A DNA stretch of 64,000 nucleotides from a virus: IMG/VR virus record IMGVR_UViG_3300034031_000020, positions 15,452-79,451 of that record. The stretch is one strand, 5' to 3'. A program made the translations under genes and the position numbers. Of this stretch, positions 11,892 through 64,000 are shown one piece after another; within the stretch, counting starts at the first letter, position 1; every line of letters starts with the position of its first letter. Below the pieces are notes generated by a model. That model was not told where the DNA came from and did not search any database. It saw only the letters and a program-made list of their open reading frames with translations.

Positions 11892-11901
11892 GGGGAACCC
11901 G

Positions 11902-14030: not shown

Positions 14031-14074
14031 TTGGGTATAAGGCACGACGACAACTCCAAAGAGTGGAACCCAAG

Positions 14075-47889: not shown

Positions 47890-47899
47890 GGGGGCACCG

Positions 47900-48412: not shown

Positions 48413-48421
48413 GAGGAAATC

Positions 48422-48694
48422 ATGGGACGGTTCCCGGTAGGGCGAGACATCGCGGAACGGGTGCTGGCAACGTTCGTCATGACCGTTCTGGGCTTGGCCA
48501 CGGCCGACGGTATCAACTGGACCGACTGGGGCAGCCTCGACAACTGGCAGACCTGGGGTGTCGGTGGCCTGACCGCAGGGTTCAGCCTGTTGAAGGGGTT
48601 GATCGCGTCGAGGATCAGTAAGCGTCAGGGCCGGTCGGCGAGCCTGGACCCGGGCGTGAAGCTCCAGCCCGTATCGGAGCACGCGTCGGCCTGA
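48422..48694 (+). CDS. Holin (r1t-like)
   Basis: DIAERVLATF...SLLKGLIA...ASL with two TM helices; AGGAGG RBS. Confidence 0.8.
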   Translation: MGRFPVGRDIAERVLATFVMTVLGLATADGINWTDWGSLDNWQTWGVGGLTAGFSLLKGLIASRISKRQGRSASLDPGVKLQPVSEHASA

Positions 48695-48707
48695 CCCCGA
48701 ACACAGT

Positions 48708-48748
48708 CCGGCCCCCGACGCAGCTCGCGTCGGGGGCCGGTTTCTGTT
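48708..48748 (+). terminator. Terminator of the structural operon
   Basis: 14-bp GC stem followed by TTTCTGTT. Confidence 0.75.
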
Positions 48749-48754
48749 GGTGGA

Positions 48755-48952
48755 TCAGGCGGGGACGGACTCTTCTGCACTCTGGTAGGTATGGTCCCAG
48801 TTACCGGCCTTGACCTGGCCGAGGAACGCGTCCCACTCGGAGTGCGTGAACGTCACAGCCCCGTCATTCCCGGGGATGGTGGAGGTGACGAGGACTCCCC
48901 CGTTAACCTTTTCGGCATTGACGCACGTCGTTGATCCGCAGGGTGTCGGCAT
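48755..48952 (-). CDS. DUF397-family protein
   Basis: CV...V.V.S......V.FT..EW.AF...VKAG. Confidence 0.75.
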   Translation of the reverse strand: MPTPCGSTTCVNAEKVNGGVLVTSTIPGNDGAVTFTHSEWDAFLGQVKAGNWDHTYQSAEESVPA

Positions 48953-49083
48953 TGATGTTGGCCTCTCTGTTCGTCGGCAATACGGGAGACATTACCTGAT
49001 CCAATTGACGGCGCCGAATATCGGTGCACCTGCCTCGGGGGTGGTCCGCCGGGAGTGTCGGACCCTGTATGTACGCTCCACGG

Positions 49084-49467
49084 ATGATGACCTTCCGACG
49101 AACCGTCACCACTGCCGCCGCTGTCGTCCTCGTCACGGGCGCCGCCCTGGCCCCGTCCACTGCCGCGCAAGCCGCCCCGCCGTCCAGTTGCACCAACTCG
49201 TCCGTGTGCGGGTACGTGAACTCCGGGTACCGCACCGACCAGGGGTACGAACTGATCCCCGTCCAGCCCGCCGGGACGTGCGAGGGTATGTCCTTCCCGA
49301 ACGCGTGGTCGGGGCTGTTCAACAACTCCGGCCGGAGCATCCGGCTTTACAAGAACAGCGGCTGCTCCGGCGAATACATCACGTTCGCCAACGGCGACGG
49401 GCACGCGCAGTTCTCCGTCGCGCACCCCACCTACGAGAACAACTCAGAGTCGTTCAAGTTCATGTAA
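49084..49467 (+). CDS. Secreted peptidase inhibitor I36 / beta-gamma-crystallin-like protein
   Basis: Signal peptide ending AQAA; C....VC.Y...Y and N..S...NN......LY motifs; -10 TACGCT 49072-49077 suggests a leaderless mRNA. Confidence 0.7.
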   Translation: MMTFRRTVTTAAAVVLVTGAALAPSTAAQAAPPSSCTNSSVCGYVNSGYRTDQGYELIPVQPAGTCEGMSFPNAWSGLFNNSGRSIRLYKNSGCSGEYITFANGDGHAQFSVAHPTYENNSESFKFM

Positions 49468-49479
49468 CCCCCACGCACG

Positions 49480-49513
49480 GAACCGCCCGCACCTCGACAG
49501 GTGCGGGCGGTTC
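49480..49513. terminator. Bidirectional terminator-like hairpin
   Basis: GAACCGCCCGCACCT / AGGTGCGGGCGGTTC between convergent genes. Confidence 0.7.
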
Positions 49514-49760
49514 TGCGTTCCGGGCCTACCGGAGGCGGGTTATCGAGACGTCGGGGATCAGGGGCGGAGGGTGCTTTGCCGGGGCCCCGACGGGTTCCTC
49601 CGTGGCGATCGTGAACTCGACCAGGCGACCGACGGGGACGTACCGGACCGTGTTCGGCTCGGCGTGCGCGGCGTAGACGAGGCACCCGTCACGGACGTGC
49701 GCGTAATCGCACGCCACGACCTCGGTCCCCGACTTGCGGACGATGCGGACGGTCACCATC

Positions 49761-50189
49761 TCAGGCCACCTCCCGTGGACTCGAACTGGTAGTCGTTCCG
49801 CGCCGCATACGGCTGGCTGGCACACCGGCCACGCAGTTGCAGACGCCACCGCGATTGATCTTGCAAACGTCCACGTGCTCGGCCCGCCGAGCCGCGAGCA
49901 TCGTGCTGGCGCAACGGTTGGCAGCGGCCCGCGTACGGTGCCGATGCTCGCACCGCTTCGCCTCGCCGCGTGTCTCGTTAAGCCGCCGCTCCACCACCCC
50001 TCGGTAATCGGAGCTTGTCATCCTGTGGGTAGTTGCCGCCCATTCCGTCGGATACTCGCGGGAGGCTTCATTGACCCGACCACAGCACTCGCAGCACTCA
50101 CCCTCCACGTCGGTGGTGTGCGTGCACCGGTCCGGATCCGGGCAGATCGACGTATCGAATCGCGGGCGGTGGTCCCGTCGCCGACTCAC
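49761..50189 (-). CDS. Cys/His-rich hypothetical protein
   Basis: Coupled ORF in the leftward operon. Confidence 0.5.
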   Translation of the reverse strand: MSRRRDHRPRFDTSICPDPDRCTHTTDVEGECCECCGRVNEASREYPTEWAATTHRMTSSDYRGVVERRLNETRGEAKRCEHRHRTRAAANRCASTMLAARRAEHVDVCKINRGGVCNCVAGVPASRMRRGTTTSSSPREVA

Positions 50190-50770
50190 GACCCGTCCTC
50201 CGATGAGCTCGGCGCGGTGACAGGTGTCCCGTAGTACCGGACCGCTATGCCCTGCCGCAGGGCGTACGCGATCAGGTCACGGGTGTCGGTGTCGAGCCGC
50301 CCGCCCGGGTTGACGACGAACACCGTGCCCGCAAGGTCAATCTTCCGCCGCTGCAACTCGGCGAGGGACTCCTCCACGGCCTGGCGTTGCACCTCGTTCG
50401 GGTACCGGGCCTCCAGGTCGTACACCCCCACCGGCAGGACCACGAACCCGGACAGGGTGAGCTGGGCGGCCACGTCGTCGTGCTCCGCCTTGCGGAACTC
50501 GGCCGGGCCGATCAGGGCCACGACCGGCGGCCGACCGGAGGCGGCGAACTCCGGGGCGACCACAGCCCAGTCGGGGAGCTGCCGGTACCTCTCGCCGGTG
50601 GCCAGGTCCACGGCCTCCACCGTGTTGCAGCCGTCGGCGGTCGAGTCGCGGGCGAGGCGACGGGCCTCGGCCTCCGTGTACCGTCCCGCTTCCTCGATGA
50701 ACGAGGTGTACCCGCGCTGCCCGGGGCGCCACCACCGGCGATACACGTTGCTCCAGATCAGGAACTTCAC
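50186..50770 (-). CDS. Two-domain protein with nucleoside 2-deoxyribosyltransferase-like C-terminus
   Basis: LT..G.VVL...KIDLA..VFVVNPGG...IAYA...G..VRY pattern; N-terminal WSN...WW...GYT...AGRY domain. Confidence 0.6.
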   Translation of the reverse strand: MKFLIWSNVYRRWWRPGQRGYTSFIEEAGRYTEAEARRLARDSTADGCNTVEAVDLATGERYRQLPDWAVVAPEFAASGRPPVVALIGPAEFRKAEHDDVAAQLTLSGFVVLPVGVYDLEARYPNEVQRQAVEESLAELQRRKIDLAGTVFVVNPGGRLDTDTRDLIAYALRQGIAVRYYGTPVTAPSSSEDGS

Positions 50771-50981
50771 GGGGATCAGCCCTCCCTGATGCGGGATAGG
50801 TGCTTCGACACGTCCTCGGGGAACTCGTCGGCGAGGGTTACGACGATCGTCGCGAACCGGGTCACCTTCCCCGCAGCGCGGGTGTCGTCGACGGACACCC
50901 GCACCCGGTCGGCGGGGAACTCGTGCGTCACCCCGCCGAGCGTCACCGTGACGCTGTCACCGTTGTTCAGGTCGCGTCGCA

Positions 50982-51608
50982 TCAGGCGTCCGCCACCGTG
51001 CGGCCACCGTGCTGGTACGGCCGGGTCCGGTTGTAGGCGATCTTCCGCGTGTACTCGGCGTCGAGGTCGATCCGCCACCGCTCCGCGAACGTCACCAGCG
51101 ACCGCAGCATCACCGGCTCACTGTTCCACGCGCTGAGTGACATGTACGCCACACCGTCGTGGAGCCAGTTCACCCAGTCGCCGAAGGTCACCAGGCCTCT
51201 GACACGGTCACCCTCCAATGAGGCGACGTCACCCAGCTCCATGTCCATGTCGAACACGGTCAGGCCGTGGACGTCGCACATGTCGAGCAACCGGATCAGG
51301 ACGTCGGCCGCTTCCGACCCGACACCTTCGGGCTTGCCGGGCATGGTCCGGTGCGCAGCGCGGTCCAGGGACCCGACCTGCGCACAGGTCAGCGCGGTGA
51401 CCATCTTGCCGAATCGGGGGCACGTCTCGTCGGCGCAGAGCGGGATGGTCGCGTCGGCGTGCCGGTGGTCGCGGAACGCCTCCAACATCTCGGACAGCTC
51501 GGAGTGCAGCAGCGCGAGGAAGTCGCCGCGTGTCTTCGGCTCGTCCCGCCAGCCTTTCGCGATGTTGACCTCGCGGACTTCGTCGGTCATTTCCTGGATC
51601 GTTTTCAC
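50982..51608 (-). CDS. MazG-like NTP pyrophosphohydrolase
   Basis: ALLHSELSEMLEA...EAADVLIRLLD...KIAYNRTR.Y.HG. Confidence 0.8.
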   Translation of the reverse strand: MKTIQEMTDEVREVNIAKGWRDEPKTRGDFLALLHSELSEMLEAFRDHRHADATIPLCADETCPRFGKMVTALTCAQVGSLDRAAHRTMPGKPEGVGSEAADVLIRLLDMCDVHGLTVFDMDMELGDVASLEGDRVRGLVTFGDWVNWLHDGVAYMSLSAWNSEPVMLRSLVTFAERWRIDLDAEYTRKIAYNRTRPYQHGGRTVADA

Positions 51609-51643
51609 TGGTCGGCAGCCTTTCGTTTGGTGTTGTGAGTGAG

Positions 51644-52021
51644 TCATGACGGCACCACCACGAGGCGGTTACCGACGGCGGCGACCCGGGCGGCGGCGCG
51701 GCGCAGCAGCCGCTTCCACGGGTTGTCGTCGTCGGGCCAGTTCCGGTCCTTCCACCACCTCCACAGCCCGAGCAGAGCGGCGGCGAAGACCAGGCCCCGG
51801 AAGGCGTCACCGTCGAGGAGCGCGCCCCACGAGTGGACGGCCACGACGACGAGACCCGGACCGGCGAGCAGCCAGAGGATCTGGACGACGCGGACCAGGC
51901 GACGGGTTGCCGCCGCGTCCGGCCAGAAGCGGAGGGCGAGGTCCGCGAACATGTGGAGGTAGATGTAGAGGATCATGTCGGCTACGGCGACGCCGGTCGC
52001 GACTAGCAGGAGGTCGCTCAT
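51644..52021 (-). CDS. Membrane protein
   Basis: Three hydrophobic segments. Confidence 0.6.
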   Translation of the reverse strand: MSDLLLVATGVAVADMILYIYLHMFADLALRFWPDAAATRRLVRVVQILWLLAGPGLVVVAVHSWGALLDGDAFRGLVFAAALLGLWRWWKDRNWPDDDNPWKRLLRRAAARVAAVGNRLVVVPS

Positions 52022-52701
52022 TTGGGGCCCCCTGAGTCACGGGCGGCCTGCTCGTACAGGGCGAACGCCTCGTCGTACTTCGCGGCGTCTCCGCCCTTCG
52101 GGGCGGTGTCACGGACGACGGTCCACCGGAACCCGAACAGGTCCTGTCCCTTGTCGTAGTCGCGGGGGTCCACCGGTACCAGCTCCAGGGAGTCCGGCAG
52201 GATCTCCCACCCGGACCCGAATAGCAGACCCTGTGCGCTTTCGAGGGCGCGTTGCGCGGTGTCGGGGCCCTCGTCGGTCATGCGGGCCTCGAACGTGTCG
52301 TACTCCAGGACGGGCAGGTCGACGGTGATCCGCTTCCCGCCGATGGAGATGGAGCCGTCGGCCTCGGCGAACCACAACCCCGCGCGCGCGGCGGTAGCGC
52401 GGCCGATCAGGATCTCGGCCTGGATGCGCTTACGCCGGGCGGCGTGCCGGGCGTTGACGGTCCGGTGGATCCAGCGTCGCAGCTTGGCGAACCCGGCGGC
52501 GGCATACAGGGCGACGACCGTCCAGCCGGTGAGCGGGGCGAGGCCGGTCCAGATCAGGGCGACCGCCACGCCGAACAGCGCCAGGAGGATCCGGGTCCAG
52601 TGCGGGACGAACGGCACGGAGGCGAAGTCGCGTTTCCACGAGTCGTCGAGGACCTCCCGCAGGCCGAGTGCGTTGCGGGAGGTCCGGCGGCGGGCGGTCA
52701 T
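52018..52701 (-). CDS. Membrane-anchored hypothetical protein
   Basis: Start MTARRRT; two TM helices. Confidence 0.6.
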   Translation of the reverse strand: MTARRRTSRNALGLREVLDDSWKRDFASVPFVPHWTRILLALFGVAVALIWTGLAPLTGWTVVALYAAAGFAKLRRWIHRTVNARHAARRKRIQAEILIGRATAARAGLWFAEADGSISIGGKRITVDLPVLEYDTFEARMTDEGPDTAQRALESAQGLLFGSGWEILPDSLELVPVDPRDYDKGQDLFGFRWTVVRDTAPKGGDAAKYDEAFALYEQAARDSGGPK

Positions 52702-53060
52702 CGGATCGTCTCCAGCCAGCGCACCGCGTCGGCCGGGGTCATGGTGTCGCGCCCGCACGTCACGCGGGTCACGGTGGCCGGGTCGTCCTCGTCGACGGTG
52801 ACGACGGCGAGGATGGGGCGGGGCTGGACGTTGAGGGTGAGGTAAGCCCGGCCATCGTGGCACCCGTTCTGCTCGAAGCCGAGCCGGGCGAGGTGCGCGA
52901 GGATGGTACGGGTGGCAGCGTCGTCGGTGAGGTCACCCCACGTCGGGTTTCGCGGGCGGGGCACGACCCGGATGACGCGCTCGTCGGTGGGCCGTAGTCG
53001 CCGGATGTCGGACTCCTGGGTGAGGACCCGCATGTCGTTCCACCATTCTTGGGAAGTCAT
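52698..53060 (-). CDS. Hypothetical protein
   Basis: AGGAG RBS; downstream of promoter C. Confidence 0.65.
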   Translation of the reverse strand: MTSQEWWNDMRVLTQESDIRRLRPTDERVIRVVPRPRNPTWGDLTDDAATRTILAHLARLGFEQNGCHDGRAYLTLNVQPRPILAVVTVDEDDPATVTRVTCGRDTMTPADAVRWLETIR

Positions 53061-53095
53061 GTTCGTCTCCTGTCGGCAGGGGTGCTAATACCTAG

Positions 53096-53125
53096 AGGAT
53101 AACACCCCGGACGTGATCCATGGAA
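53096..53125 (-). promoter_or_regulatory. Promoter with operator (site C)
   Basis: Minus strand TTCCAT-18bp-TATCCT with TCACGTCCGGGGTGTTA in the spacer. Confidence 0.6.
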
Positions 53126-53473
53126 GTGGTTGCCCGCTCCCACTCGCGGCGGAGGCGCTGAACCTTCCGGCGGCCACTCGCGCGGTCGATGTCGAAGTAC
53201 ATGCACTGGGGTCGGTGCCCCTTCGAGCGGGCCGTACGGCGGCGACACCCGCAGTTCAGTCGAGACGACGCCATCACTCCGCCCCCCACAATGAGCCATC
53301 GTGGCACCACGCGGACAGGGGCTGGCCGCAGACACGACCCTCGATGGCCGGGTCGTAGTCCCGGTCCGGCTCGTACTCGTGGTTCCCGGCGACGTTCGAG
53401 CGACACGGTCGCGCACCCGGCACGGCGGTGGGGGGCAGGGCGGTAGAGGGCGGGGCAGGGCGGTCGTCGGCAG

Positions 53474-54544
53474 TCACGGTGTGCCTTTCCGTTGCACTCG
53501 GTGGACGGTCGGCCGGTCGGCCGGGCCGTTGAGGTTGACGTTGATCGGGCCGAGCCACTTCACCCGGGCCTCAGCCCGGCCGGGACCCACCCGGTAGGTG
53601 TGGAAGTGTGACCGGCGGACGTGCGGGGCGACCTTCCGGCCCGTGCCCGCCGAGCCCTCCCCGGATGCCTGGCTCCGGTACTCGCGCAGGGCAGCGCCGA
53701 GCCGGTACCCGACCTCGACGACCCGGGTCGCGTTGGTGTCCTTGACCCTTCGGCCGGACTTCGTCTTGCGGGGCGGCACGGGGACGGGTCGGAGGTCCGC
53801 GTTCGTGGCGCACAGGTAGACGAGGGTGGACATCACCGCTCGCAGCATCGCCGGGAGGTGCGCCTGCCAGTCGGTGAAGTCGTCGGCGAGGGACAGGAAC
53901 CTGGCGGACGACTCCTCGACCATCTCACCGATGGTCATCCCGTCCTGAATGGTGAGCCTCGTCAGGGCGATGTCCTGAACCCCGTCGGTCAGGATCAGGG
54001 GGCTGCCGTCGGGGTTGTGGACGAGGCCGCAGACGAGCAGGCCGTACGCGTTCGTCCCGGGGCCGTGGGTGGATTGCTGGGTCGCGCCGAGCCCACCCAC
54101 CACGCGGCGGCCGGTGAGGAAGAATCCGGAGACCCTCTGAACGAGCCCGTTGTCCAGCGGGATGTCCAGGGGCTCGGGGAATGCCACGAACGGGTCGGGG
54201 TGCGGCAGGTGGGTGAGGAGTCCGGCGGGGATGGTGACGGAGTCGTCGGTCTCGCCGAGCTCGGCCCACAGGTCCGCGTCGATCGAGTAGATGGTTTTGT
54301 TCTGCTCCCACAGCGTCAGCGCGGCGTGGTCCTGGCCGGTGAACATCACGTTCGCGGCCAGGTCCGGCGCGAACGTGTTGATCTCGAATATCTCCGGCGG
54401 TGGCTGCTGCTGGCGGTTGCCGAGAGCTGAGGTCGCGTGCCAGTCGAAGAACGGGACGATGACGCGGGGGTTGTAGCGGGCGAACCCGACGACGTTCGCG
54501 ACGATCGTCGTGTGGCAGCGGTTGAACACCTCGGTCGCTTTCAT
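53474..54544 (-). CDS. AcrVA2/FinQ-family protein
   Basis: W...K.IY.ID..L..EL, LP, LVYLC, VG..LG..L and C-terminal PHVRRSHFHTYRVG....KWL.PI.V motifs. Confidence 0.7.
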   Translation of the reverse strand: MKATEVFNRCHTTIVANVVGFARYNPRVIVPFFDWHATSALGNRQQQPPPEIFEINTFAPDLAANVMFTGQDHAALTLWEQNKTIYSIDADLWAELGETDDSVTIPAGLLTHLPHPDPFVAFPEPLDIPLDNGLVQRVSGFFLTGRRVVGGLGATQQSTHGPGTNAYGLLVCGLVHNPDGSPLILTDGVQDIALTRLTIQDGMTIGEMVEESSARFLSLADDFTDWQAHLPAMLRAVMSTLVYLCATNADLRPVPVPPRKTKSGRRVKDTNATRVVEVGYRLGAALREYRSQASGEGSAGTGRKVAPHVRRSHFHTYRVGPGRAEARVKWLGPINVNLNGPADRPTVHRVQRKGTP

Positions 54545-54876
54545 CGCGGGCCCCGGGCGGGACCGCACTGCGGGGAGGTGCCGGTCCGGCAGATCCGCTC
54601 GGTGAGCTGGAGCTGCTCGGCGCCCTTGCGGAGCCAGTCGGCCCGGCGCTCGGCGTGGGAGGTGCGGGCGTCGGCGATCGGGCCGAGGTTGCCGAAGTCC
54701 TTCGGCTTGCGCGGGTCGTACGACTTGGAGTACGTCCACCAGGCGACCCACTGCCGGGCGTGCTCACCGCAGAGGTCGTCCGGGGGTTTGCGGGTGGACG
54801 GGAACTCGGGGACCGCCAGGAGTCCGGCGGAGCGGAGCAGGTCCTCGGTGTTCGGGCTGCCATCACGGCCGAGCAT
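54541..54876 (-). CDS. Hypothetical protein
   Basis: GGAGG RBS; first gene after promoter D. Confidence 0.65.
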   Translation of the reverse strand: MLGRDGSPNTEDLLRSAGLLAVPEFPSTRKPPDDLCGEHARQWVAWWTYSKSYDPRKPKDFGNLGPIADARTSHAERRADWLRKGAEQLQLTERICRTGTSPQCGPARGPR

Positions 54877-54916
54877 CAGGGTTACCTCCAGGATCGGCAG
54901 GGGTGGTTACGCACTC

Positions 54917-54945
54917 AGCATAACACCCCGGCAGTGATCCGGCTA
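54917..54945 (-). promoter_or_regulatory. Promoter with operator (site D)
   Basis: Minus strand TAGCCG-17bp-TATGCT with TCACTGCCGGGGTGTTA. Confidence 0.6.
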
Positions 54946-55999
54946 GAGGTACCTCGGGTCCGGCCACCACGTCTCCGCCCACTCGTGATCGCCGTACTGC
55001 CCGAACGCCCGGATCGCGTCACGACCACCGGACCGGACGCGGCGGGCGTGCCAGTCCGGGACCTGGGTGTGCCACACCACGACCCCCGAACCGGCGACGC
55101 GGTACACGACGAGCCGCAAATCCAGCTCGGCCAGGTCGTACGGGTCGTCCGGGTCCTCATGATCCCAGCGCGGCATGACGGTTCCCCTCGTCGGCAGTAG
55201 GGTGCGGACGTGAGCATAAACCCTGATGAGTGGGCGTCCCGACGGTCGGCGCCGTTCGACCTCACAGACGACTACCGGGGTCGACGTCGTGCCGACGAGG
55301 CACCACGTCACCGGGCGCCGTTCGAGGTCCCCCGGATCCAGGCGCCCCGGGCCGCAGCCGTTGGGACCGCCGCGATCGCGCTCACCGTCGCGACCTTCGC
55401 TCCCGGCGCGCTCGTCCGCGACGGTGGCGAAGACGCCCCGCCCGCGTACGGGGCGTGGCCCGCCGCTGAAGCGCCCGTCGTGTTGACCGACCTACCGCCG
55501 GGTGGGACCGTCCAGGTATCCCCCGGCGGTGGAGCCGCACTACTCCCGGACGGGGGCGGGTCGGCCCCGTCCGTCGGGGACGGTGTGCCCCCGGAAACGA
55601 CGCCGGGGCCGACCCCCCGCAGGGAGACGACCCCGAACCGCGCGATGACCGGACCTACGACCCCCCCGACCGTTCCGGGTCGTCCGGCAGCGGCGCCGAC
55701 GGCCGCAACGTACGACTCAGCTCCGCCAGCAACCACAGCGTCCCAGGGGCCCGCCCGACCTGGACAGGGCCCTCGCACTCACCGGGCCCCTGGACCGCGT
55801 CATCGGGCCGCTTCGCCGCCAGCCGCATCACCCGCGCCGCTGACATCAGCTCAGCCCACCGGAGAGGGATCTGAGGCAGAACCGCACCGAGGGCGGCGGC
55901 CAGCGCTGCGGCGGTGGTGGACCGGCGAACCACGACCGTCGTCGACGGACCGAAGCCAGGCAGAGCCCCTTCCTGAATCACGATCTTCACGGTGGTCAT

Positions 56000-56458
56000 C
56001 TAGCGATCATCCCTCTCAGCGTCGAAGTAGGAACCCGCCGGGTTCGGCACCCGAGGCCCGGCCACAACCGGATCGGGGCGGGTCGCGGGCCACACCGGCA
56101 CCGGGCCGCCACGGTGGTCGTCACGCCGCCGGGCACGGGCGTCACGGTCGGCCTGACGCCGGGCCTCGACCTGATCGGTCCACCGGCTGACGGCCTGCGC
56201 GTCGTAGATCGGGGGCGGCGGCCAGTCGGCGTTCTCCTGCGCCACCCGGGCCCGGTACCCGGCGTCGTACCCGGCGGCGTACGTCAGCGGTGACGGTTCG
56301 CCCTCCACGACTTCGCGCGCCCACCGGGCTGCGGTCGCCATGAGGTACGCGACCTGTTCGCGGGTGAACAGGTGGCCGGGGTCGGCCAGCGCGGTGACCA
56401 TCCGTTCGATCGCGGACGGTTCACCGGTGGTCGCGGGGGTGTCGGCAGTGGTGGTCAT
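56000..56458 (-). CDS. Hypothetical protein
   Basis: TGATG coupling to the upstream gene; GYDAGY motif. Confidence 0.6.
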   Translation of the reverse strand: MTTTADTPATTGEPSAIERMVTALADPGHLFTREQVAYLMATAARWAREVVEGEPSPLTYAAGYDAGYRARVAQENADWPPPPIYDAQAVSRWTDQVEARRQADRDARARRRDDHRGGPVPVWPATRPDPVVAGPRVPNPAGSYFDAERDDR

Positions 56459-56817
56459 CAGAACCGGCCGAGGCCGAACGCGAACGAGAACAGCACAGCG
56501 AACACGGTCATGAGCCGCACCATGAACGGTGAGCCCGTCAGCCACCACGCCAGGCCGGTCCCGAGCGCGGTCCCGATGGTCACCCCCGTCGACTCGTCGG
56601 TCTCCCGGGCGATCTCGGCGACCTCGGCGCGGCCCCGGGCCCACTCCCGGGCGATCATGCGGATGTCGTCCGCGTCCCACCACCACAGCCGGGTTTCGAG
56701 ATCCAGAGCCTCCCCGACCCGGCGGCGGGCCTCCGGCAGTGGCACCGGCGCCGTCGGGTCGACGGGCGGCGGGGTGGCCGCCCATGCGTGCTCGGCGTAG
56801 ACGTCAGTCCTCGACAT
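56458..56817 (-). CDS. Small membrane protein (transfer/spread region)
   Basis: Two C-terminal TM helices. Confidence 0.6.
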   Translation of the reverse strand: MSRTDVYAEHAWAATPPPVDPTAPVPLPEARRRVGEALDLETRLWWWDADDIRMIAREWARGRAEVAEIARETDESTGVTIGTALGTGLAWWLTGSPFMVRLMTVFAVLFSFAFGLGRF

Positions 56818-57247
56818 TGGCTCCCACTCCCTTGTACTTGATCCCGTTCGCGAGAACGACGGACCCTGAAGCCTCAGCCTCGCGGATCGCGTTGCGTTCC
56901 ATCTGCTCGGCGACTTCCTTCGAGCGGTACCACGTCACCCACTCGTCCGGCATGACCATGGTCGCCTGAACCCTGGCCGGTACCGTCTCCCACCACTTGC
57001 GCCGGTGCCCGTCGGGGAGCCCGCGCTGGTACGCCCGGTGGCGCCTCAACCGGACGTGCGGGTCCCGGGCGTACCCGATGTAGACCCGGCCGTCCGTGAG
57101 CGGGATCCGGTACACGCAGTGCGGCTCGTAGTCGACGAGGGCCAACACCAGCCACCGCACCATGAAGACGAGACCGAGGACCACCACGGCGAAGATCAGG
57201 CCGCCGAACAGGTCGCCCCACGGGATGTCCCACCCGCGCTCCCTCAT
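56804..57247 (-). CDS. Membrane-anchored GIY-YIG nuclease
   Basis: N-terminal TM helix, then CVYRI...VYIGYARDP..RL..H...E..AI..E...N. Confidence 0.75.
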   Translation of the reverse strand: MRERGWDIPWGDLFGGLIFAVVVLGLVFMVRWLVLALVDYEPHCVYRIPLTDGRVYIGYARDPHVRLRRHRAYQRGLPDGHRRKWWETVPARVQATMVMPDEWVTWYRSKEVAEQMERNAIREAEASGSVVLANGIKYKGVGANVED

Positions 57248-57441
57248 TCGAGGCCCCCGAAGCCGTCGATGAAGTTGTACGCCCCGTACATGACGAGGAG
57301 CACGCCCCCGGCAGTCGCGACCCCGGCGGCGCGGCGGAGGTCGGGGTTCCACTCGGCGACCGCCTCGGCGGCGTGGGCGCTACCCACCCACACCCCGAGG
57401 AGCAGCAGCACCAACCCGAAGATCACGCGTAGCCCGTTCAT
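57244..57441 (-). CDS. Small membrane protein
   Basis: Two TM helices, ATGA coupling. Confidence 0.6.
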   Translation of the reverse strand: MNGLRVIFGLVLLLLGVWVGSAHAAEAVAEWNPDLRRAAGVATAGGVLLVMYGAYNFIDGFGGLE

Positions 57442-57833
57442 GCCCACGGGCTCCACAGCGAGACCCAACCGGTCGTGCCGAGCAGGGCGACCACGGCCCC
57501 GACCGCCCACCCCAGGCCCACACCCCGGGGCCCGCCCGCCGTGCCCGCGCGGGCGGACATCCGCCGCGACAGAGCGGCCTGGCTGTTGCTGTACGCCAGC
57601 CAGCCGACCGCCAGGGCCGTGGCCAGGGCGAAGGCCGTCACCCCCAGATAGAAGTGCGGCACGGACACCCACATCCACATGAGCGCGCCGACGGCGGCCA
57701 CAAGCACGGCGATCCGCCAGAAGTACGGCCCGAAGGCGATCATGTAGGCGTGCTCGTGTCCGATCCGGCGCCATGCCGCGTTCTCCATGACTCGCTGCCG
57801 GTGCTCCCGGTTCATCCGTCGACGCTGACCCAT
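57438..57833 (-). CDS. Membrane protein (Spd-like position)
   Basis: Three TM helices; GGAGAGAGGG RBS. Confidence 0.65.
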   Translation of the reverse strand: MGQRRRMNREHRQRVMENAAWRRIGHEHAYMIAFGPYFWRIAVLVAAVGALMWMWVSVPHFYLGVTAFALATALAVGWLAYSNSQAALSRRMSARAGTAGGPRGVGLGWAVGAVVALLGTTGWVSLWSPWA

Positions 57834-57849
57834 GTCCCTCTCTCCGTCC

Positions 57850-58239
57850 TTACTTGACGACTACGGTGTCCGACGCGGCGCCCTGCGGCTGGCGGGCCGC
57901 GCGGATCGCGTCGACGTATCCGGTTTGAAGCCGTCGCTTGAAGATCGTGAAGTTGACGGCAGCGTTGTACAGGTCCCCGGCGGCGGCGTGCAGCGGCTCG
58001 ACGACCCAGCTCGCCGTACGCTTCGCGTCCCCGCCGCGCAGGTGGCGGGAGAGGAAACCGCCGCCGTCGAGGCCCTCGGCCCGGAGGCCCTTCGTCAGCC
58101 GGACCGTGAGGGAGATCGCCATGTTCGCGACGAAGTCCGAGCCCTGGATGGACGCGTGCCGCAAACTCTCAGCGATCTTGTCGAGGTTCTCGGCGTCTCG
58201 GAGGTCCTGGTTCTTCGGAGGCATCTCCGGCATGGTCAC
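57850..58239 (-). CDS. TraA-like helical transfer-associated protein
   Basis: Coupled to the traB stop; AKR.A..V...L..AA......A..F pattern recalls actinomycete plasmid TraA. Confidence 0.5.
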   Translation of the reverse strand: MTMPEMPPKNQDLRDAENLDKIAESLRHASIQGSDFVANMAISLTVRLTKGLRAEGLDGGGFLSRHLRGGDAKRTASWVVEPLHAAAGDLYNAAVNFTIFKRRLQTGYVDAIRAARQPQGAASDTVVVK

Positions 58240-60476
58240 TCACCTTCCTGGGAGGGCTTCGGCCGACGGGGCAGCGGCCCCGTACGGATCAACAGGTACC
58301 GGCCCGCGCCGAGGCGTTCGAGCTGGAGACCGGGCGGGGTGAGCCGGGCCCCCTCCGCCAGCGCGGCGAGTCGGCGGCTGACCGTGTACGGCTGCATGGC
58401 GTACCTCATCCGCTTCTGCAAGTCGGAGTTCGAGAATTCCATCTGACCGTCGTCGGCGAGCCTCGTCAGGGCGGAGTCCAGGTCGGCCTCCGCCTGCTCC
58501 TCGTTCGGCGGTTCCGGCTTGTCGTCCGGCAGGCTCATCCGCTCGCCGGGGTTCAGCTTCAGCGGCCTGCCCGGGTCGCGCGGGTCGACCTTCGCGGCGT
58601 CCTCCGCCAGGCCCGGGTGCAGCAGCGTCGCGACGACACCCTCCCCGCCCTGCTCGTCGGGGTCCGAGCCTTCCATCGTCCTGTCCACAGAGACACCTTC
58701 CTCGTCGTCGTCATCATCGTCGTATTCGCCGGACCCGGCGGCGGGTGCCAGCGGGTTCCGTTGTGTGGCCTGGCCGTCCGGTGCGGGCTCGGCCGGGTCG
58801 CCCTCCTTCTCATCCTCGGACCGGGGACCCCGCAACGCCAGGACGGCGGCGGGGGTACAAGCCTGGTAGTCCTCACCCATCCACCGGATCGCCTCATCCG
58901 TGAACGTCATCGGGGTGAACGTCGCGCGGGCCTCCTTCACCATCCGGCGCAGGTCCCGGGTGTCGGAGAAGAACGACCGGCACAGCACCGGCCACAGTCG
59001 CTCGGGGACGCCGGGGACGAGGTCGAAGTAGTGGGCGCCCCGGATCCGCAGGGACTCCGGGTCGGCGCCGCCGTCGCGGGCGATCTGCGACAGGGTGAAC
59101 TCGCCGGAGTACTTGTCGCCGATCGCGAACGTCTTCCACGCGGCGATCGAGCCCCGGAACGCGGCCGGGACTTCCTGGGTGGATGCCCGGGGAACGGAGC
59201 AGACGAGGAAGATCCCGAGGGAGCGTCCCCGCTTGCCGAGCCAGTCCCACTGACCCTTCGAGAGGAACGTGTCGGCCTCGTCCATGATGACGAGCACGGC
59301 CGCCTCCCCGGTCTCCTGGGCGAGCTGGGGGGTCCATTCCCGCCCGGCGACGATCCCCGCGTTGCCCGGGTCGAGAGCCGCGTCGAGCGACGCCTGACCG
59401 AACAGCTCCACCCGGTACTCGGCGAGCTTGCGCAACGCAACGCTCAACCGCTTCGCCTGGTTGCGGTCCTTCGCCGCCATGCCGAGCATGTCGAGCGCCC
59501 ATCCCGCGTTCTGGTACAGCTTCTCCGCGTCGACCCAGCACACGATTGCGTCGCACCGGGACAGCCCCTCGGCGGCGACGTTGTTCTCTTCGCCGGACTT
59601 CCCTACGCCGGTCGTGCCGACGAGTCCGAGGAACGTAGCTTGCGGCGCAACGAAGTCGGTGACGGGCGACGCAAGTTGCGTCGCGACGAAACCGAACCAT
59701 TGGTCTTCGCCGGTGGCGTAATACGAGGTGCGGAACGGGAACGCAAACGAACCGCCGGGGTGCGACAGTCCGGGGAACTTGCGCCACTCGTCGAACGGGT
59801 CCGCCATCGTCAACGCAACCTGCGAACCGCCGCCGCGTTCGTTCGGCGTAACGGTGGTGCGTCCGACGATTGCGCCGGTCTTGTCCTCCAGTTCGCCAGC
59901 GGCCGTCCTTACGTTCTTGATGGTTTCGCCGGGGCCGTGCTCGACGTCAATGATCACCTGTGAGGGCGTGGTCGTGATCTTCTTCGGCCGGGACTTCGCG
60001 AGGCCGATGACCTTGCCCCATCCGTCGTCGCCGCTCTCGCCCTTCGCGGCGGCCCGGAACGCGTCGATCCGGTAGAGCATCCACGACGAGTACAGAATCC
60101 CGGTCATGAAGACCGCGACGACGTTCATGAACCGGTGCCGGAACCCGGCCAGGGTGTAGAGGTCCCCGCCGACGCCGATGAGGATCACGGTCACCGCGAC
60201 GTGCTTGATCAGGAAGTTGGTCCGCTTCGCGTGGAACAGCCCGATCCCGATCGCGATCAGGGCCACGGTCAGCCCGGACACGAACCAGGCGTGGGCGACC
60301 ATGAGCCCGGTGGCCTGGTCCCACAGCATGACCAGCCGGGAGACCAGGAACAGCACCGGGAGCAGGCCGAAGGCCACCAGCGCGGACGCCAGGAACGGGA
60401 CGGGTCGCTTCCCGGTCGGCCGGGTGTGGCTGGCGGACTGACCCTTGCTCGCCTCGGTGTCGGTCTTCGTGCTCAT
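58236..60476 (-). CDS. traB: TraB-type (FtsK/SpoIIIE family) conjugative DNA translocase
   Basis: Four N-terminal TM helices, Walker A GTTGVGKS, Walker B VLVIMDEA, GRSLGI arginine-finger motif, acidic linker, C-terminal wHTH-like TVSRRLAAL. Confidence 0.8.
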   Translation of the reverse strand: MSTKTDTEASKGQSASHTRPTGKRPVPFLASALVAFGLLPVLFLVSRLVMLWDQATGLMVAHAWFVSGLTVALIAIGIGLFHAKRTNFLIKHVAVTVILIGVGGDLYTLAGFRHRFMNVVAVFMTGILYSSWMLYRIDAFRAAAKGESGDDGWGKVIGLAKSRPKKITTTPSQVIIDVEHGPGETIKNVRTAAGELEDKTGAIVGRTTVTPNERGGGSQVALTMADPFDEWRKFPGLSHPGGSFAFPFRTSYYATGEDQWFGFVATQLASPVTDFVAPQATFLGLVGTTGVGKSGEENNVAAEGLSRCDAIVCWVDAEKLYQNAGWALDMLGMAAKDRNQAKRLSVALRKLAEYRVELFGQASLDAALDPGNAGIVAGREWTPQLAQETGEAAVLVIMDEADTFLSKGQWDWLGKRGRSLGIFLVCSVPRASTQEVPAAFRGSIAAWKTFAIGDKYSGEFTLSQIARDGGADPESLRIRGAHYFDLVPGVPERLWPVLCRSFFSDTRDLRRMVKEARATFTPMTFTDEAIRWMGEDYQACTPAAVLALRGPRSEDEKEGDPAEPAPDGQATQRNPLAPAAGSGEYDDDDDDEEGVSVDRTMEGSDPDEQGGEGVVATLLHPGLAEDAAKVDPRDPGRPLKLNPGERMSLPDDKPEPPNEEQAEADLDSALTRLADDGQMEFSNSDLQKRMRYAMQPYTVSRRLAALAEGARLTPPGLQLERLGAGRYLLIRTGPLPRRPKPSQEGE

Positions 60477-60490
60477 GGTCGCCTCCCCTC

Positions 60491-60677
60491 TTGCAGTAGA
60501 TCCACATCTACGGACGGTGACTTGCAGGTGATCATTTGGTCTCTTGCATTGTGGACGAATCGGACTGCGGGTCCTCTTGCATCCGGGGCAAACCGGGCGG
60601 CTTGCAAGATCAGTTGCACCGGATCCCCTTAGGGAACGGGGGCGTCTGAAGCGGCGCGTTGCAGGGTTGCAGTTGCA
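60491..60677. repeat. TTGCA pentamer cluster upstream of traB
   Basis: Nine TTGCA copies at 60491, 60522, 60544, 60577, 60602, 60614, 60659, 60667, 60673. Confidence 0.7.
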
Positions 60678-61657
60678 CCGCCGTTTTCGTCACTCACGGT
60701 GCGCGACGGATCGGCCGGAACGGGCGCCGGGAAGTCGCGCGCCCGCCGCTCCCGCTCGGCCTTCACCCATAGCTGCGCGGTCCGCACGTTGACCCCGAGG
60801 TCCGTCGCCGCCGTCTTGGCGTCCTCGGTCCCGTCCACGCAGCGCTTGATCACGTCGGCGCGGCGGGGGTCGCCGGTCGGCCGGTCCTGGCCAGCAGCCT
60901 CTCGCGGGGCGCGAGGTCGGCGCGGCCCCGGCTTCGAGGCCGGACGCGGGAGCGGCGGCGGGACCGGGGCCTCCAGCTCGACGGGCGGCTCCGGGGCGGC
61001 GGGCAGCGCGGGGGGCGTTTGTGCAGGTAGAGGGGCCGGGGTCGCGTCCGGGACCGTGGCCTGGATGGCGGTCCGGCGCTGCCGGGTGTACTCGGCGGCT
61101 GCCAGGCGGGCCGTGACCACAGCGGCGGGCAGGCTGGACGTCGCAGGGGCGTCGTCGAGGGCCTGGCCGATGGCCCGGTCCCGGCGGCGACGGGCCCACC
61201 AGCCGAGGCCGGGGGTCTCCTCCGACACGGCGTCGGAGTCCCAGTGCCGGGCGACGATGATCAGGGCGTGGAGGCTGGCCGCGAGGAACAGGGCGGGGAA
61301 CAGGCTGGCGGCTCGGCCCCAGTTGTTCCACTGCTCATGGTCGGCGTAGCCCTCGCTCGCCCCGACCTGCGCGCCGATGACGACCGCGAGCCAGAACCAG
61401 GCGTAGATCCGCTGGCGCAACGGCGCGTTGCGCAGCATGTACGTCAGCGCCATCAGATTGATGGCGAAGATGTCCAGCGCAACCGGCGCGAACCAGGGGA
61501 GCGGCTGATGCAACTCCCACACCTCGGCGGCGAAGCCGTACGCGAGCCACGCCTGGATGGCGAACTGCGTCGCTGCGTTTGCGGCGAAGAGCAGCGCAAT
61601 CGGGACGGGGATTCGTCGGGCGCGCGGCGGCGAAGTGTTGCGTTTGTCGGCAGACAT
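60629..61657 (-). CDS. DUF2637 / SpdB2-like membrane protein with Pro-rich linker and C-terminal HTH
   Basis: Four TM helices (WFAPVALD motif), Pro-rich linker, AATDLGVNVRTAQLW HTH; -10 TACTCT 7 nt upstream (leaderless). Confidence 0.75.
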   Translation of the reverse strand: MSADKRNTSPPRARRIPVPIALLFAANAATQFAIQAWLAYGFAAEVWELHQPLPWFAPVALDIFAINLMALTYMLRNAPLRQRIYAWFWLAVVIGAQVGASEGYADHEQWNNWGRAASLFPALFLAASLHALIIVARHWDSDAVSEETPGLGWWARRRRDRAIGQALDDAPATSSLPAAVVTARLAAAEYTRQRRTAIQATVPDATPAPLPAQTPPALPAAPEPPVELEAPVPPPLPRPASKPGPRRPRAPREAAGQDRPTGDPRRADVIKRCVDGTEDAKTAATDLGVNVRTAQLWVKAERERRARDFPAPVPADPSRTVSDENGGATATLQRAASDAPVP

Positions 61658-61678
61658 ACGGCGAAGAGTAGCACCCTC

Positions 61679-61897
61679 CGACGCAACCGGCGCAACCACT
61701 TCGTCGGCGCAACGTTGCGTCGATTCGTTGCGTTGCGGCGCATTGCGTCGGTGCCGACGTAACGTTGCGCCGTCCGGGTTCGTTGCGTCGGCCGCGACGT
61801 TGCGTCGGCGGCCGGGCTTCGTTGCGGCGAAGCTTCGCCGGTTCGGCGCAGTTGCGTCGGCCGAACGTTGCGTCGGGCCCGACGCAACGTTGCGTCG
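61679..61897. repeat. Array of 8-bp TTGCGTCG repeats (candidate clt locus)
   Basis: Seven exact direct copies (61715, 61743, 61783, 61800, 61852, 61868, 61890), two inverted (61679, 61880) and several 1-mismatch variants. Confidence 0.8.
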
Positions 61898-61909
61898 GGC
61901 CCGGCTGCG

Positions 61910-62221
61910 TCACTTCGTTTCGCCGGAGCCGTTGCACCGGAAGCAGTACTTGATGCCGTCGCGGGTGTAGCCGCTGGCGCCGCCGTACTCGCCAGTACCG
62001 AGGCAGTACCAGCACGCCCGGTCGCGCAGGGCCTCGTACGCGGCCCGAAGGTCGGGGATGGTCGCCTCGATCTCGGCGATCTTCGCCTCGGCCTCCACCA
62101 TCCGCTCGGGGAACCGGCGGCGCATCTCCTCGATCAGGTCTGCGGGGAGCGGGGCAACCTGGCCCTCGGCCGTCTCCAGTGCCTGGCGGGCCTTCGCGAG
62201 TTGCGCGGGGAAGGTGGTCAT
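61910..62221 (-). CDS. Coiled-coil protein with CxxCxGxG zinc finger
   Basis: CWYCLGTG...CFRCNGSG; GGAGG RBS. Confidence 0.7.
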   Translation of the reverse strand: MTTFPAQLAKARQALETAEGQVAPLPADLIEEMRRRFPERMVEAEAKIAEIEATIPDLRAAYEALRDRACWYCLGTGEYGGASGYTRDGIKYCFRCNGSGETK

Positions 62222-62253
62222 CGGGGCCTCCGTAGCTCGTTGCCTGTACCACG

Positions 62254-62296
62254 AGCGTAACCCCCGGGGCGTTAGGATGCAACCCCCGGGGCGTGA
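62254..62296 (-). promoter_or_regulatory. Promoter with tandem operator (site E)
   Basis: Minus strand TTGCAT-17bp-TACGCT; operator twice. Confidence 0.75.
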
Positions 62297-62343
62297 AAAT
62301 CTTGAGAAGCCGGGGTCGCCCCGTGCGGGACGGCCCGTCCCGC

Positions 62344-62670
62344 TCAGAGCTTCGCGACGGTGTGGCCCTCGCCGAGGTGCTCGGCGGCGGCGAGGGCCGC
62401 CTTCCGGGTCGGCCGGTCGCACTGGAGGGCGCCGCCCGGGGAGAAGATCCCCCACGTAACCGGGCCGCTGCTCTCCTTCGCCACCCGGGCGGGGGCGGTC
62501 TTCGTGGGCTTCGGGGCGCCCATCCGCTGACACCGCTTGCACGTCACGGCCTCGGTCGTTTCGGTCAGGTAGAGGGTCTGGTTCGCCTGGATGCCGCAGA
62601 TCTGGACAAGGCCGGTGCCGTCGGTCTTCGCCTCGTGGACGGTTCCGGTGATGTCGTTGAACGCTCGCAT
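62344..62670 (-). CDS. Small Zn-binding hypothetical protein
   Basis: H...CG...VTCKRC; GAGGGAG RBS. Confidence 0.7.
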   Translation of the reverse strand: MRAFNDITGTVHEAKTDGTGLVQICGIQANQTLYLTETTEAVTCKRCQRMGAPKPTKTAPARVAKESSGPVTWGIFSPGGALQCDRPTRKAALAAAEHLGEGHTVAKL

Positions 62671-62714
62671 CGGGGGCTCCCTCGGTAGTTCCTGCCTGCC
62701 TTGCTGATACTCAT

Positions 62715-62758
62715 AGCCTAACGCCCGGGGGGGTGAGAGTGCAACCCCCCGGGCGTGA
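62715..62758 (-). promoter_or_regulatory. Promoter with tandem operator (site F)
   Basis: Minus strand TTGCAC-18bp-TAGGCT; operator twice. Confidence 0.75.
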
Positions 62759-62809
62759 AAATCTTGCGAGCACGACTCCGCCGCAGGCCACGCCCCGAAT
62801 GTGCCGCAG

Positions 62810-62853
62810 TAACGCCCTGGGAGTTGACAGCCTAACGGCCGGGGCGTTACGTT
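62810..62853 (+). promoter_or_regulatory. Promoter with tandem operator (site G), leaderless
   Basis: TTGACA 62824-62829, 18 bp, TACGTT 62848-62853, ATG at 62860. Confidence 0.75.
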
Positions 62854-62859: not shown

Positions 62860-63459
62860 ATGAAGCGACTTGCTGACGTGCTGTGCCGAGCACACCGGGC
62901 GATGATCCTGGGGGCGGGCATGTGGCCGTCCGGCTGGAACCCGGAGGAGTGCCAAGAGTGCGACGGAGTCGCCGGGTTCACCGCGCTGCCGGACGTCGAC
63001 GAGCGGCAGGAGATCGCGGTCCACGAGGCCGGGCACGCCTTCGTGTACCAGTGGCTCGGGATCGAAGTCGGCGAGGTCGCCATCGGCGGGAGTGCTGACT
63101 TCGCCGCGTACACGATGGTCCGACCCCACGATCAGGGGAGTCTCCCCGGCCTCGCCGGTCTGTGGGCGGGGAGCGTGGCCACCAGGGAGTGGCTGGCCCG
63201 GGGCGGACGCCTGGACGAGGCTGCCGAGGTCGACGTGGCGCAGGCCGCTCGGACCGACGCCCGGATCATCTGCCGGTCGACTTCCGACCTGGCCCTGATC
63301 CAGGAGGCGCGGGAGTTGGCCGAGCGACTGATCGTCCGGCACTGGTCCACGGTCGAGGGTCTGGCCGCCGCGCTGGCTGACGGCGGATCTCTGTCAGGTC
63401 CCCGGGTCGGCCGGGTCGTGGCGCAGGCGCGCAGGTCAGGGATAGTTTGTGCCACCTAA
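62860..63459 (+). CDS. HEXXH zinc metallopeptidase (M41/FtsH-protease-domain-like)
   Basis: IAVHEAGHA...AG..A...D......W..V..LA.AL. Confidence 0.75.
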   Translation: MKRLADVLCRAHRAMILGAGMWPSGWNPEECQECDGVAGFTALPDVDERQEIAVHEAGHAFVYQWLGIEVGEVAIGGSADFAAYTMVRPHDQGSLPGLAGLWAGSVATREWLARGGRLDEAAEVDVAQAARTDARIICRSTSDLALIQEARELAERLIVRHWSTVEGLAAALADGGSLSGPRVGRVVAQARRSGIVCAT

Positions 63460-63499
63460 CGCCCGGGGGGTTGCATTCTAACGCCCGGGGCGTTAGGCT
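63457..63499 (+). promoter_or_regulatory. Promoter with tandem operator (site H)
   Basis: TTGCAT 63471-63476, 17 bp, TAGGCT 63494-63499; TAACGCCCGGGG twice, 22 bp apart. Confidence 0.78.
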
Positions 63500-63592
63500 A
63501 TGGGTACAACACCACACAGGGAGCCGGAGCAGACGCCGGAGCGCAGGCACCGCCCGCCCGCGTCGCCCCTCCCCCGAGCATCGGAGCCGACC

Positions 63593-64000
63593 ATGAACAA
63601 GTTCCAGACCGCCAAGACCCTCACCGCCCTCTACCTGATCACCGCGCTCGTCCTGTCCTTCACCCACATCGCCGCCCTGTTCGCCCTGATGGGCGCCGGG
63701 TGGGAAGCCTGGATCGCCCCCGTGATGATCGACGCGGTCGCCATCATCGGCAAGATCTCCATGGGCGTCGAGTTCACCGGCAAGACCCGCCGCGCCGGGA
63801 AGCAGGCCCTCCTGATCGCCGGGTCGGTGTCCTTCGTCGCGAACGTCACCGTCGGGTACATCCACCAGCAGTACGGCTCGGCGCTCCTCGGCGCGATCGT
63901 GGTCGCCGGTGCCCTGTGGGCCGAGAACCACCTCCACAACCTCCGCCCGGTCACCCCGCGCGGCCCCCCCCCCCCCCCCCCCCCCGCCCCCCCCCCCAAA
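63593..64000 (+). CDS. Second DUF2637-like membrane protein (truncated)
   Basis: MNKFQTAK...LSFTHI...AWIAPVMID...SFVANV; GGAG RBS; runs into the poly-C end. Confidence 0.65.
   Translation, partial: MNKFQTAKTLTALYLITALVLSFTHIAALFALMGAGWEAWIAPVMIDAVAIIGKISMGVEFTGKTRRAGKQALLIAGSVSFVANVTVGYIHQQYGSALLGAIVVAGALWAENHLHNLRPVTPRGPPPPPPPAPPPK

Follow-up and report, generated by a model that had tools for sequence, protein, structure and literature searches.

A Tailed-Phage Genome With a TraB-Type Operon

The DNA analyzed here, hereafter the window, is a stretch of 64,000 nucleotides comprising bases 15452-79451 of a 79,451-bp IMG/VR virus record (IMGVR_UViG_3300034031_000020). It carries the virion genes of a tailed phage together with a leftward operon, running from about 62.2 to 49.5 kb, in which a 746-amino-acid (aa) membrane-anchored pump of the TraB family is encoded beside a membrane protein with a helix-turn-helix (HTH) domain and several small membrane proteins (Table 1). 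An earlier note on this DNA had seen in that combination a candidate conjugative phage, and its gene inventory held up in large part: terminase, portal, capsid and tail were all found on the one contig by profile matches, gene calls (made with a filter on GC content at third codon positions, GC3) give the leftward operon, and hydropathy shows transmembrane (TM) segments in the 131-, 88-, 147- and 119-aa products. Terminase, portal, protease, HK97-fold capsid and tape measure, the set by which HK97-type Caudoviricetes are recognized, are all present.

Table 1. Features of the window, in window coordinates.
Feature	Position	Strand	Basis or remark
Virion module: TerL, portal, prohead protease, major capsid protein, head-tail adaptor, tape measure, tail	25930-47889	+	profile matches
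TerL	25930-27591	+	phrog_9, E 5e-33
Portal	28017-29387	+	PF04860, E 4e-38
Prohead protease, ClpP/S78-type	29401-31227	+	
Major capsid protein	31390-32844	+	
Tape measure	38921-42379	+	
Tail proteins	up to 47889	+	
119-aa protein, C-terminal TM helix	56458-56817	-	hydropathy
147-aa protein, N-terminal TM helix and GIY-YIG-like domain	56804-57247	-	hydropathy; PF01541
88-aa small membrane protein	57244-57510	-	hydropathy
131-aa small membrane protein, 2-3 TM	57438-57833	-	hydropathy; Spd-like by analogy only
129-aa protein, no known family	57850-58239	-	kept downstream of traB in relatives
TraB-family translocase, 746 aa	58236-60476	-	profile, pairwise, AF2, Foldseek, tree
Second cluster of the array octamer, inside traB	59434-59863	.	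8 copies, <=1 mismatch
Membrane/HTH protein, 342 aa (356 aa from GTG at 61699)	60629-61657	-	
Octamer array GTTGCGTC/TTGCGTCG, both orientations	61565-61897	.	
103-aa protein, two CxxCxGxG (DnaJ-type) zinc-finger motifs, operon's first gene	61910-62221	-	translation
Phage repeated promoter, leftward copy, twin quasi-palindromic sites	62245-62294	-	heads TraB-module operon
End overlap (copy of first 126 contig bases; closes circle) and 32-nt poly-C tail	63843-63968, tail to 64000	.	end comparison

The TraB-Like Pump

An AlphaFold2 (AF2) model of the pump, built from 43 homologues (predicted local distance difference test, pLDDT, 80.7), shows all three parts that had been ascribed to it, namely TM helices, an FtsK-like ATPase and a winged helix-turn-helix (wHTH). 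Four TM helices at residues 26-145 (pLDDT about 90, in agreement with hydropathy) are followed by a beta-rich linker, a P-loop FtsK-like motor at about 282-545 with Walker A GTTGVGKS and Walker B VLVIMDEAD, an acidic disordered linker at 550-655, and a C-terminal wHTH at 659-731 made of three helices and a beta hairpin (pLDDT >90). The best Foldseek matches of the motor were the FtsK structures 6T8B, 2IUT and 2IUS (E about 1e-15; TM-score 0.63 by target), with TcpA, EssC/EccC and then HerA next. No Pfam family matched the protein at all, while the NCBIfam profile NF041214 (plasmid_TraB) aligned with residues 59-714 over profile positions 30-623 of 639 (E 5.4e-44). In tblastn searches of plasmids the pump found 21 records, all from actinomycetes (several annotated traB; 21-27% identity), the best E-value being that of pCQ3 TraB (2e-11). 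Compared with the TraB of a Streptomyces canus plasmid, it is 25% identical over 474 residues (E 2e-20), with Walker A and a PG(L/P)SxPGGS motif in common.

In a motor-domain tree rooted on EccC, which was a quick search with plasmid rows chosen as tblastn hits, the phage family (Shimodaira-Hasegawa-like approximate likelihood-ratio test, SH-aLRT, 100) and eight plasmid-type TraB proteins made up one clade (support 98) and six chromosomal FtsK proteins a separate one (SH-aLRT 98). Profile and tree, the comparison that the earlier note had suggested, thus place the pump with plasmid TraB rather than with chromosomal FtsK. Plasmid TraB is the single-protein pump with which Streptomyces plasmids drive double-stranded DNA from one hypha to another. 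Judged from their sequences, the phage pumps are a separate, phage-only and deeply branching TraB subfamily. Homologues fell into 46 clusters, the window's own protein among them, and several lie on contigs of 62-64 kb. Queried by tblastn with the pump, 50,697 phage records gave no match even at E<=5, so that no cultured relative can be named; nor did a relative turn up when species genomes were scanned with a pattern from the TraB alignment.

The Operon and Its Conserved Core

Three adjacent genes, for the membrane/HTH protein, the pump and the 129-aa protein, form a core conserved in the window genome (G0) and in G1 and G2, the downstream small membrane proteins being common to G2 as well. 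A membrane/HTH protein of the same type lies directly upstream of traB in all six relatives. In the 342-aa protein a multi-TM domain at the N terminus is joined by a Pro-rich linker to an HTH_23-type HTH at the C terminus, whose recognition helix is RTAQLW. On the other side of traB, the start of the 129-aa gene overlaps the traB stop by 4 bp; a predicted complex of the 129-aa protein with the pump scored 0.00, which gives no verdict and is evidence neither way. The GIY-YIG signal of the 147-aa protein was obtained on the longer open reading frame 56804-57352 (PF01541, E 2e-5), and a GIY-YIG nuclease gene is also found beside the GntR-traA-traB region of the S. canus plasmid (L017 2625-3023). 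At the head of the operon, the 103-aa zinc-finger protein had no match in Pfam or PADLOC.

Two labels given earlier to genes of the operon were not supported. A "TraA-like gene" was not found: among eight neighbours of the pump no NCBIfam TraA model matched at E<=0.1, nor did any other named NCBIfam model, and the 129-aa protein showed no similarity to the TraA of the S. canus plasmid (BLASTP, E 1.3). The "DUF2637" label of the 342/356-aa protein fares no better, as the protein has no Pfam match and PF10935 (DUF2637) was found in none of its 35 homologues, some of which do carry HTH_23; hhalign of the family against a plasmid DUF2637 protein returned a probability of 11%. A protein in the equivalent position at locus L019 matches DUF2637 (6e-9), but only its HTH part aligns with the window family, and language-model neighbours with a DUF2637 plus HTH_23 architecture are leads only. 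The sole PF10935 signal in the genome is weak (E 0.0066, below the cut-off) and falls at 63638-63916 in another gene, the membrane-protein gene at 63500 that continues across the junction of the contig ends.

Octamer Clusters and Their Likely Reader

The 8-bp repeat array described earlier upstream of the module is real and significant. The window has 13 occurrences of TTGCGTCG, where 3.6 would be expected; nine exact copies fall in 61679-61897 and three inside traB. Allowing up to one mismatch raises the array to 17-20 copies, which point both ways and in part make up 18-bp palindromes of type CGACGCAACGTTGCGTCG (three to five of them). The second cluster, inside traB, is a new element of this analysis. 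Within 700 bp it has 8 copies, where 0.5 would be expected (P about 1e-7). In the equivalent place locus L018 has a cluster of its own motif, CGTTCGCA (8 against 1.0 expected, P about 9e-6); the second cluster of the locus-specific word sits 400-1100 nt into traB. Since the copies within traB occupy different reading frames and both strands, a repeat in the encoded peptide does not explain them.

An array just upstream of the membrane/HTH gene was found in all six relatives, each with its own word: 15 copies of CGTTCGCA (8 exact) in L018, 11 copies of TGCGCCGG in L003, and weaker TTCGC-type repeats in L002, L019 and L020. The words vary with the recognition helix of the membrane protein. G0 and L003 both have RTAQLW, are 67% identical in the HTH domain, and have array words one base apart (TTGCG(T/C)CG), while L002, L018 and L020 combine the helix RAV(E/Q)xW with TTCGC-type words. 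The TxSRRL helix of the TraB wHTH is kept in G0, L002, L003 and L018 although their words differ, and G0 and L002, with the most similar TraB proteins (68%), have different words. Since the array word tracks the recognition helix of the membrane HTH protein, this co-variation favours that protein, rather than the TraB wHTH, as the probable reader of the array; the comparison spans six loci only, in which array and HTH gene are physically linked, so that shared inheritance could mimic co-variation. A reading of the array as a TraB-read clt, the transfer site of Streptomyces plasmids, is accordingly doubtful on this comparison.

No octamer emerged convincingly as over-represented across the three complete genomes, as a KOPS-like word (KOPS, FtsK-orienting polar sequences) for the conserved TraB helix would be expected to be. 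In distant relatives a five-copy array (CGGAAAG- or TTGTCCA-type) lies directly 3' of traB (L019 12128-12301, L021 2760-2929, L023 2713-2888), the classical plasmid clt position; the window has no array immediately downstream of traB.

The Module as Part of the Phage

Bases 79294-79419 of the contig repeat its first 126 and are followed by 32 nt of poly-C junk. This end overlap closes the record into a circle of 79,293 bp, the whole genome of a tailed phage, and the "linear" label of IMG/VR is an artefact of the poly-C tail. A membrane-protein gene at 63500 runs across the junction into the contig's first gene. The circle contains no host flanking DNA, and GC content is about 70% over the whole window (0.69-0.71 across 48-64 kb). 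The 76.4-kb genome G002 is syntenic with that of the window but circularly permuted: its two ends separate orthologues of genes that are neighbours in the window genome, and in it the orthologue of the last gene of the window contig precedes those of its first genes.

A separately assembled Logan contig of 43 kb bridges 44001-62722 with 0 differences at a flat depth of 17.4, in a run (X1) that is the probable source sample, so that this contig is not independent evidence. The Logan assembly breaks at about 62.7 kb. The window sequence is present in biocrust and soil metagenomes, and two other studies yielded perfect short contigs from the tail region and the module at similarly low depth. Besides the window genome, five viral genomes (G001-G005) have both a terL and a traB homologue, which makes at least six in all; a capsid gene in G001 and G002 and a portal gene in G003-G005 confirm their virion genes. 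Three of the five (G001, G003 and G005), with lengths of 61-64 kb, carry terminal repeats.

At the head of the operon stands a copy of a promoter that recurs through the phage. It has a -35 box TTGCAT, a 17-nt spacer and a -10 box TACGCT, and in this copy (62290-62245) the -10 box ends about 30 nt before the start codon of the operon's first gene. The general form is CACGCCCCGGGGGTTGCA-N-CACCCCCGGGGCGTTAGGCT, with eight copies rightward and two leftward in the genome. The promoter/operator motif reported earlier exists, with five twin sites in the window (13990/14012, 62259/62281, 62721/62743, 62812/62834, 63458/63480). Its placement on both sides of the module was not borne out: at up to 2 mismatches there is no copy between 37155 and 62259, and every site in the vicinity of the module lies upstream of it, to the right. 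At least ten promoter copies, at window 13990-14040, 62245-62294, 62710-62850 and 63458-63510 and at contig 300-6520, each have twin CCCCGGGG-type quasi-palindromes 22 bp apart that overlap the -35 and -10 boxes, and from their sequence these repeated promoters look like a repressor-controlled early regulon. Divergent promoter copies also mark a putative switch region at 62.3-63.5 kb, where the called genes overlap suspiciously.

The claim that the module is integrated into the phage is therefore upheld by the closed genome, the permuted G002, the co-occurrence of terL and traB, the bridging contig and the phage promoter. As the cassette accompanies terL in at least six viral genomes and a phage promoter heads its operon, we consider it very probable that the TraB-family pump is integral to the phage, and not part of an adjacent actinomycete integrative and conjugative element (AICE) or of a chimera. 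That the co-occurrence is an artefact, either a chimeric assembly or an AICE or plasmid inserted in or beside a prophage, could be suspected of a metagenome contig classed as linear and broken in the Logan assembly, yet the break coincides with a repeated promoter copy beyond which a second contig continues at similar depth, the ends overlap, GC is uniform, and the same gene order recurs in six viral genomes from different samples. An insertion of an AICE was rejected in particular: neither an integrase nor an att-bounded insertion was found, a six-frame search for tyrosine integrase (PF00589) and serine recombinase/resolvase (PF00239) having given no match. We regard an artefact as highly improbable.

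The octamer array is probably not the replication origin, which is likely to lie in lineage-specific iterons beside a primase/helicase-like gene, since short repeat arrays adjoin that gene in all three genomes (the window genome, G001 and G002). In the window the candidate origin repeats are four copies of GGGGTGTACC at 4570-4703, next to the gene at 3142-4542; the relatives have seven copies of AGGGGTGGA (G001, about 60925) and six of GGGTGTAC (G002, about 61352). Elsewhere in the window, a region at about 11900-13600 reaches 77% GC, has dense short GC-rich direct repeats (CGGCCACGGCCA and related) and is mostly left without genes by the GC3 filter.

Phage Relatives and Host

The phage is remote from those on record: its TerL is at most 27% identical to any in the 50,697 phage records, and megablast of 40-64 kb against them gave no match. 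The best TerL match (33%) was to a 34-kb "plasmid" of Streptomyces sp. NBC_01335, which was set aside as an excised phage without TraB. Relatives of the capsid, at 48-60% identity, occur in genomes of Micromonospora, Amycolatopsis, Streptomyces, Frankia, Kitasatospora, Nonomuraea, Actinoplanes and others, and those at L025-L056 sit in large chromosomal contigs of many mycelial actinomycete genera. Because of these capsid relatives and of the WhiB protein that the phage encodes, its host is probably a mycelial actinomycete.

In the lysis region (15150-18118), which lies upstream of the terminase and far from the tail genes, a GH25 lysin domain stands at the start of a 631-aa protein, and the start of a 358-aa gene overlaps the stop of this lysin by 4 bp. 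Two TraB matches were found in genomes that have prophages with related capsids (Kitasatospora and Streptomyces SID13726); they could not be linked to the capsid locus, and one of them, placed in the tree, groups with plasmid TraB.

Comparison With Known Systems

The general idea of TraB joined to virion genes is not new, as pZL12 and pCQ3 already combine them. In later papers that cite Zhong et al. (2010, J Bacteriol 192:3747), pZL12/phiZL12 is described as a plasmid-phage whose transfer reportedly depends on a major tra gene together with neighbouring ones (PMC3583192, PMC4487206). That actinophages can carry Spd homologues has been pointed out as well (PMC4447253). The window phage resembles pCQ3 and pZL12, and also pSLE1, in having capsid and tail genes and a TraB-type gene on one replicon. 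In pCQ3 (NC_013449.1, 85.5 kb, from Streptomyces sp. W9) traA-traB at 19.7-22.4 kb precedes the genes for capsid, HK97 gp10, tail and lysin; the plasmid also has ERF, WhiB, ParA/ParB and a tyrosine integrase. In the window phage, by contrast, ParA (PF13614; ParB was not searched separately), integrase and TraA were not found. The pCQ3 TraB is canonical and named as such by the Prokaryotic Genome Annotation Pipeline (PGAP), whereas that of the window is about 25% identical to it, belongs to the separate phage-only clade, and has as its partner a membrane HTH protein with its own two-part repeat site; the window TerL has no match in pCQ3.

Like the TraB-clt-Spd systems of Streptomyces plasmids (pSVH1, pSG5, pIJ101; PMC4447253), the module has an FtsK-like pump that is anchored in the membrane and ends in a wHTH, 8-bp repeats on its own DNA, some of them within traB, small hydrophobic proteins in a translationally coupled operon and, probably, a mycelial host. 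It differs in that its small proteins have no sequence link to Spd, no GntR-type Kor/TraR was among the proteins searched, the repeats are in both orientations, include palindromes, form two clusters and track the neighbouring HTH rather than TraB, and the replicon is a virus. Chromosomal FtsK/SpoIIIE, with their KOPS and SpoIIIE recognition sequences (SRS), share the motor fold (6T8B, 2IUT) and the general logic of a wHTH that reads 8-bp words; unlike them, the pump has no Pfam FtsK_SpoIIIE match and lies in a separate tree clade, and the repeats of the window are clustered instead of dispersed and polar, with no shared octamer over-represented genome-wide. Plasmids such as pFRL2 and that of NBC_01725 likewise have a multi-TM protein adjoining traB, of the DUF2637/SpdB2 type; there the DUF2637 gene is downstream of traB, while the membrane/HTH gene of the window is upstream, and this protein and its 35 homologues are without PF10935, only the HTH part linking them to the L019 protein.

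Proposed Function and Alternatives

The identity, architecture, conservation and genomic integration of the parts of the cassette are established by the results above, and they suggest a mechanism. The cassette consists of the membrane HTH protein, a divergent TraB pump (four TM helices, FtsK-like hexameric-type motor, wHTH), the 129-aa protein and the small membrane proteins, its 5' part being flanked by two lineage-specific octamer clusters (GTTGCGTC), the intergenic array and the one within traB. A membrane complex would bind phage DNA at these clusters. The HTH of the upstream membrane protein is the most likely contact, with the TraB wHTH as a possible second one. Driven by the ATPase, the phage DNA would then pass in double-stranded form through septal cross-walls or from hypha to hypha where these touch, and the phage could spread within the mycelium without capsids. 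We put the chances of such capsid-independent movement of phage DNA at about even. Spreading through cross-walls or between hyphae, which would resemble the spread of plasmids by TraB and Spd (PMC4447253), seems a better guess than classical conjugation from a stable donor, because integrase, partition and Kor functions are not visible, and a "conjugative phage" acting from a stable donor is doubtful. A further-reaching version is possible and is offered tentatively, namely that these phages are a non-integrating actinophage clade in which a phage-specific TraB subfamily, working with a membrane HTH adaptor that reads a lineage-specific two-part octamer site, pumps replicating genomes through cross-walls.

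Several results weigh against a transfer function, which is itself read from sequence and a structure model. The pump reaches 150.7 bits on NF041214 against an equivalog cut-off of 800, which makes it a remote TraB relative and not an equivalog, and its activity may differ; a six-frame search of the genome with Pfam FtsK_SpoIIIE (PF01580) found nothing even at E<=1. No TraA was found, nor a GntR-type Kor regulator among the proteins searched, and nothing in their sequences ties the small membrane proteins to Spd proteins. With integrase, resolvase and ParA not found, no prophage or plasmid state that could serve as donor is visible. Eight of the ten genomes having prophages with related capsids lack a match to the phage TraB family, and the cassette is therefore accessory in the wider capsid lineage. 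Finally, the array, with its palindromes and its tie to the neighbouring HTH, could be a mere operator.

This last point is the core of another explanation, in which the octamers are operators or a centromere-like anchor for the membrane HTH protein and the pump serves maintenance or segregation of phage DNA, not transfer, for instance into hyphal compartments or spores in a carrier or plasmid-like state. It accords with the position of the array between promoter and membrane/HTH gene, with its three to five 18-bp palindromes, with a word that tracks the upstream HTH helix while TxSRRL of TraB is constant across groups, and with the role of the chromosomal relatives FtsK/SpoIIIE in segregation (PMC2440964). 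The pump, however, clusters with transfer proteins and not with FtsK, plasmid-type replication-partition genes were not found (in the search for ParA), and the co-variation, seen at six loci where the array adjoins the HTH gene, may be shared inheritance; we therefore judge both forms of this explanation unlikely, if deserving of attention. Less credible is a module directed at other DNA or at the host, through exclusion of superinfecting phages or plasmids or through pumping or clearance of host DNA. FtsK/HerA-type ATPases are found in defence systems, HerA and SIR2-HerA appear lower in the fold list, and the cassette is accessory, under an early-type promoter and among non-structural genes. 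Against this, HerA-type folds score far below FtsK and TcpA, PADLOC assigned no defence family to the pump or nine neighbours (bar one borderline E of 0.0095 on a small neighbour), and the self-specific repeat clusters on phage DNA argue that the substrate is the phage genome, which leaves such a role improbable.

Implications

If the cassette does move phage DNA, virion production and DNA spread would be uncoupled in these phages, which would change the view of phage spread and host range in mycelial, antibiotic-producing actinomycetes and would add a path for gene flow in soil that does not depend on capsids. The tasks appear to be divided, a membrane HTH protein reading the repeats and TraB pumping, and this would vary the "one protein is enough" model of conjugation in Streptomyces in a way that can be tested. 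Should the DNA be pumped through cross-walls, the system would be a bacterial counterpart of the cell-to-cell movement of plant viruses, in which one infection could take a whole mycelium with no extracellular step.

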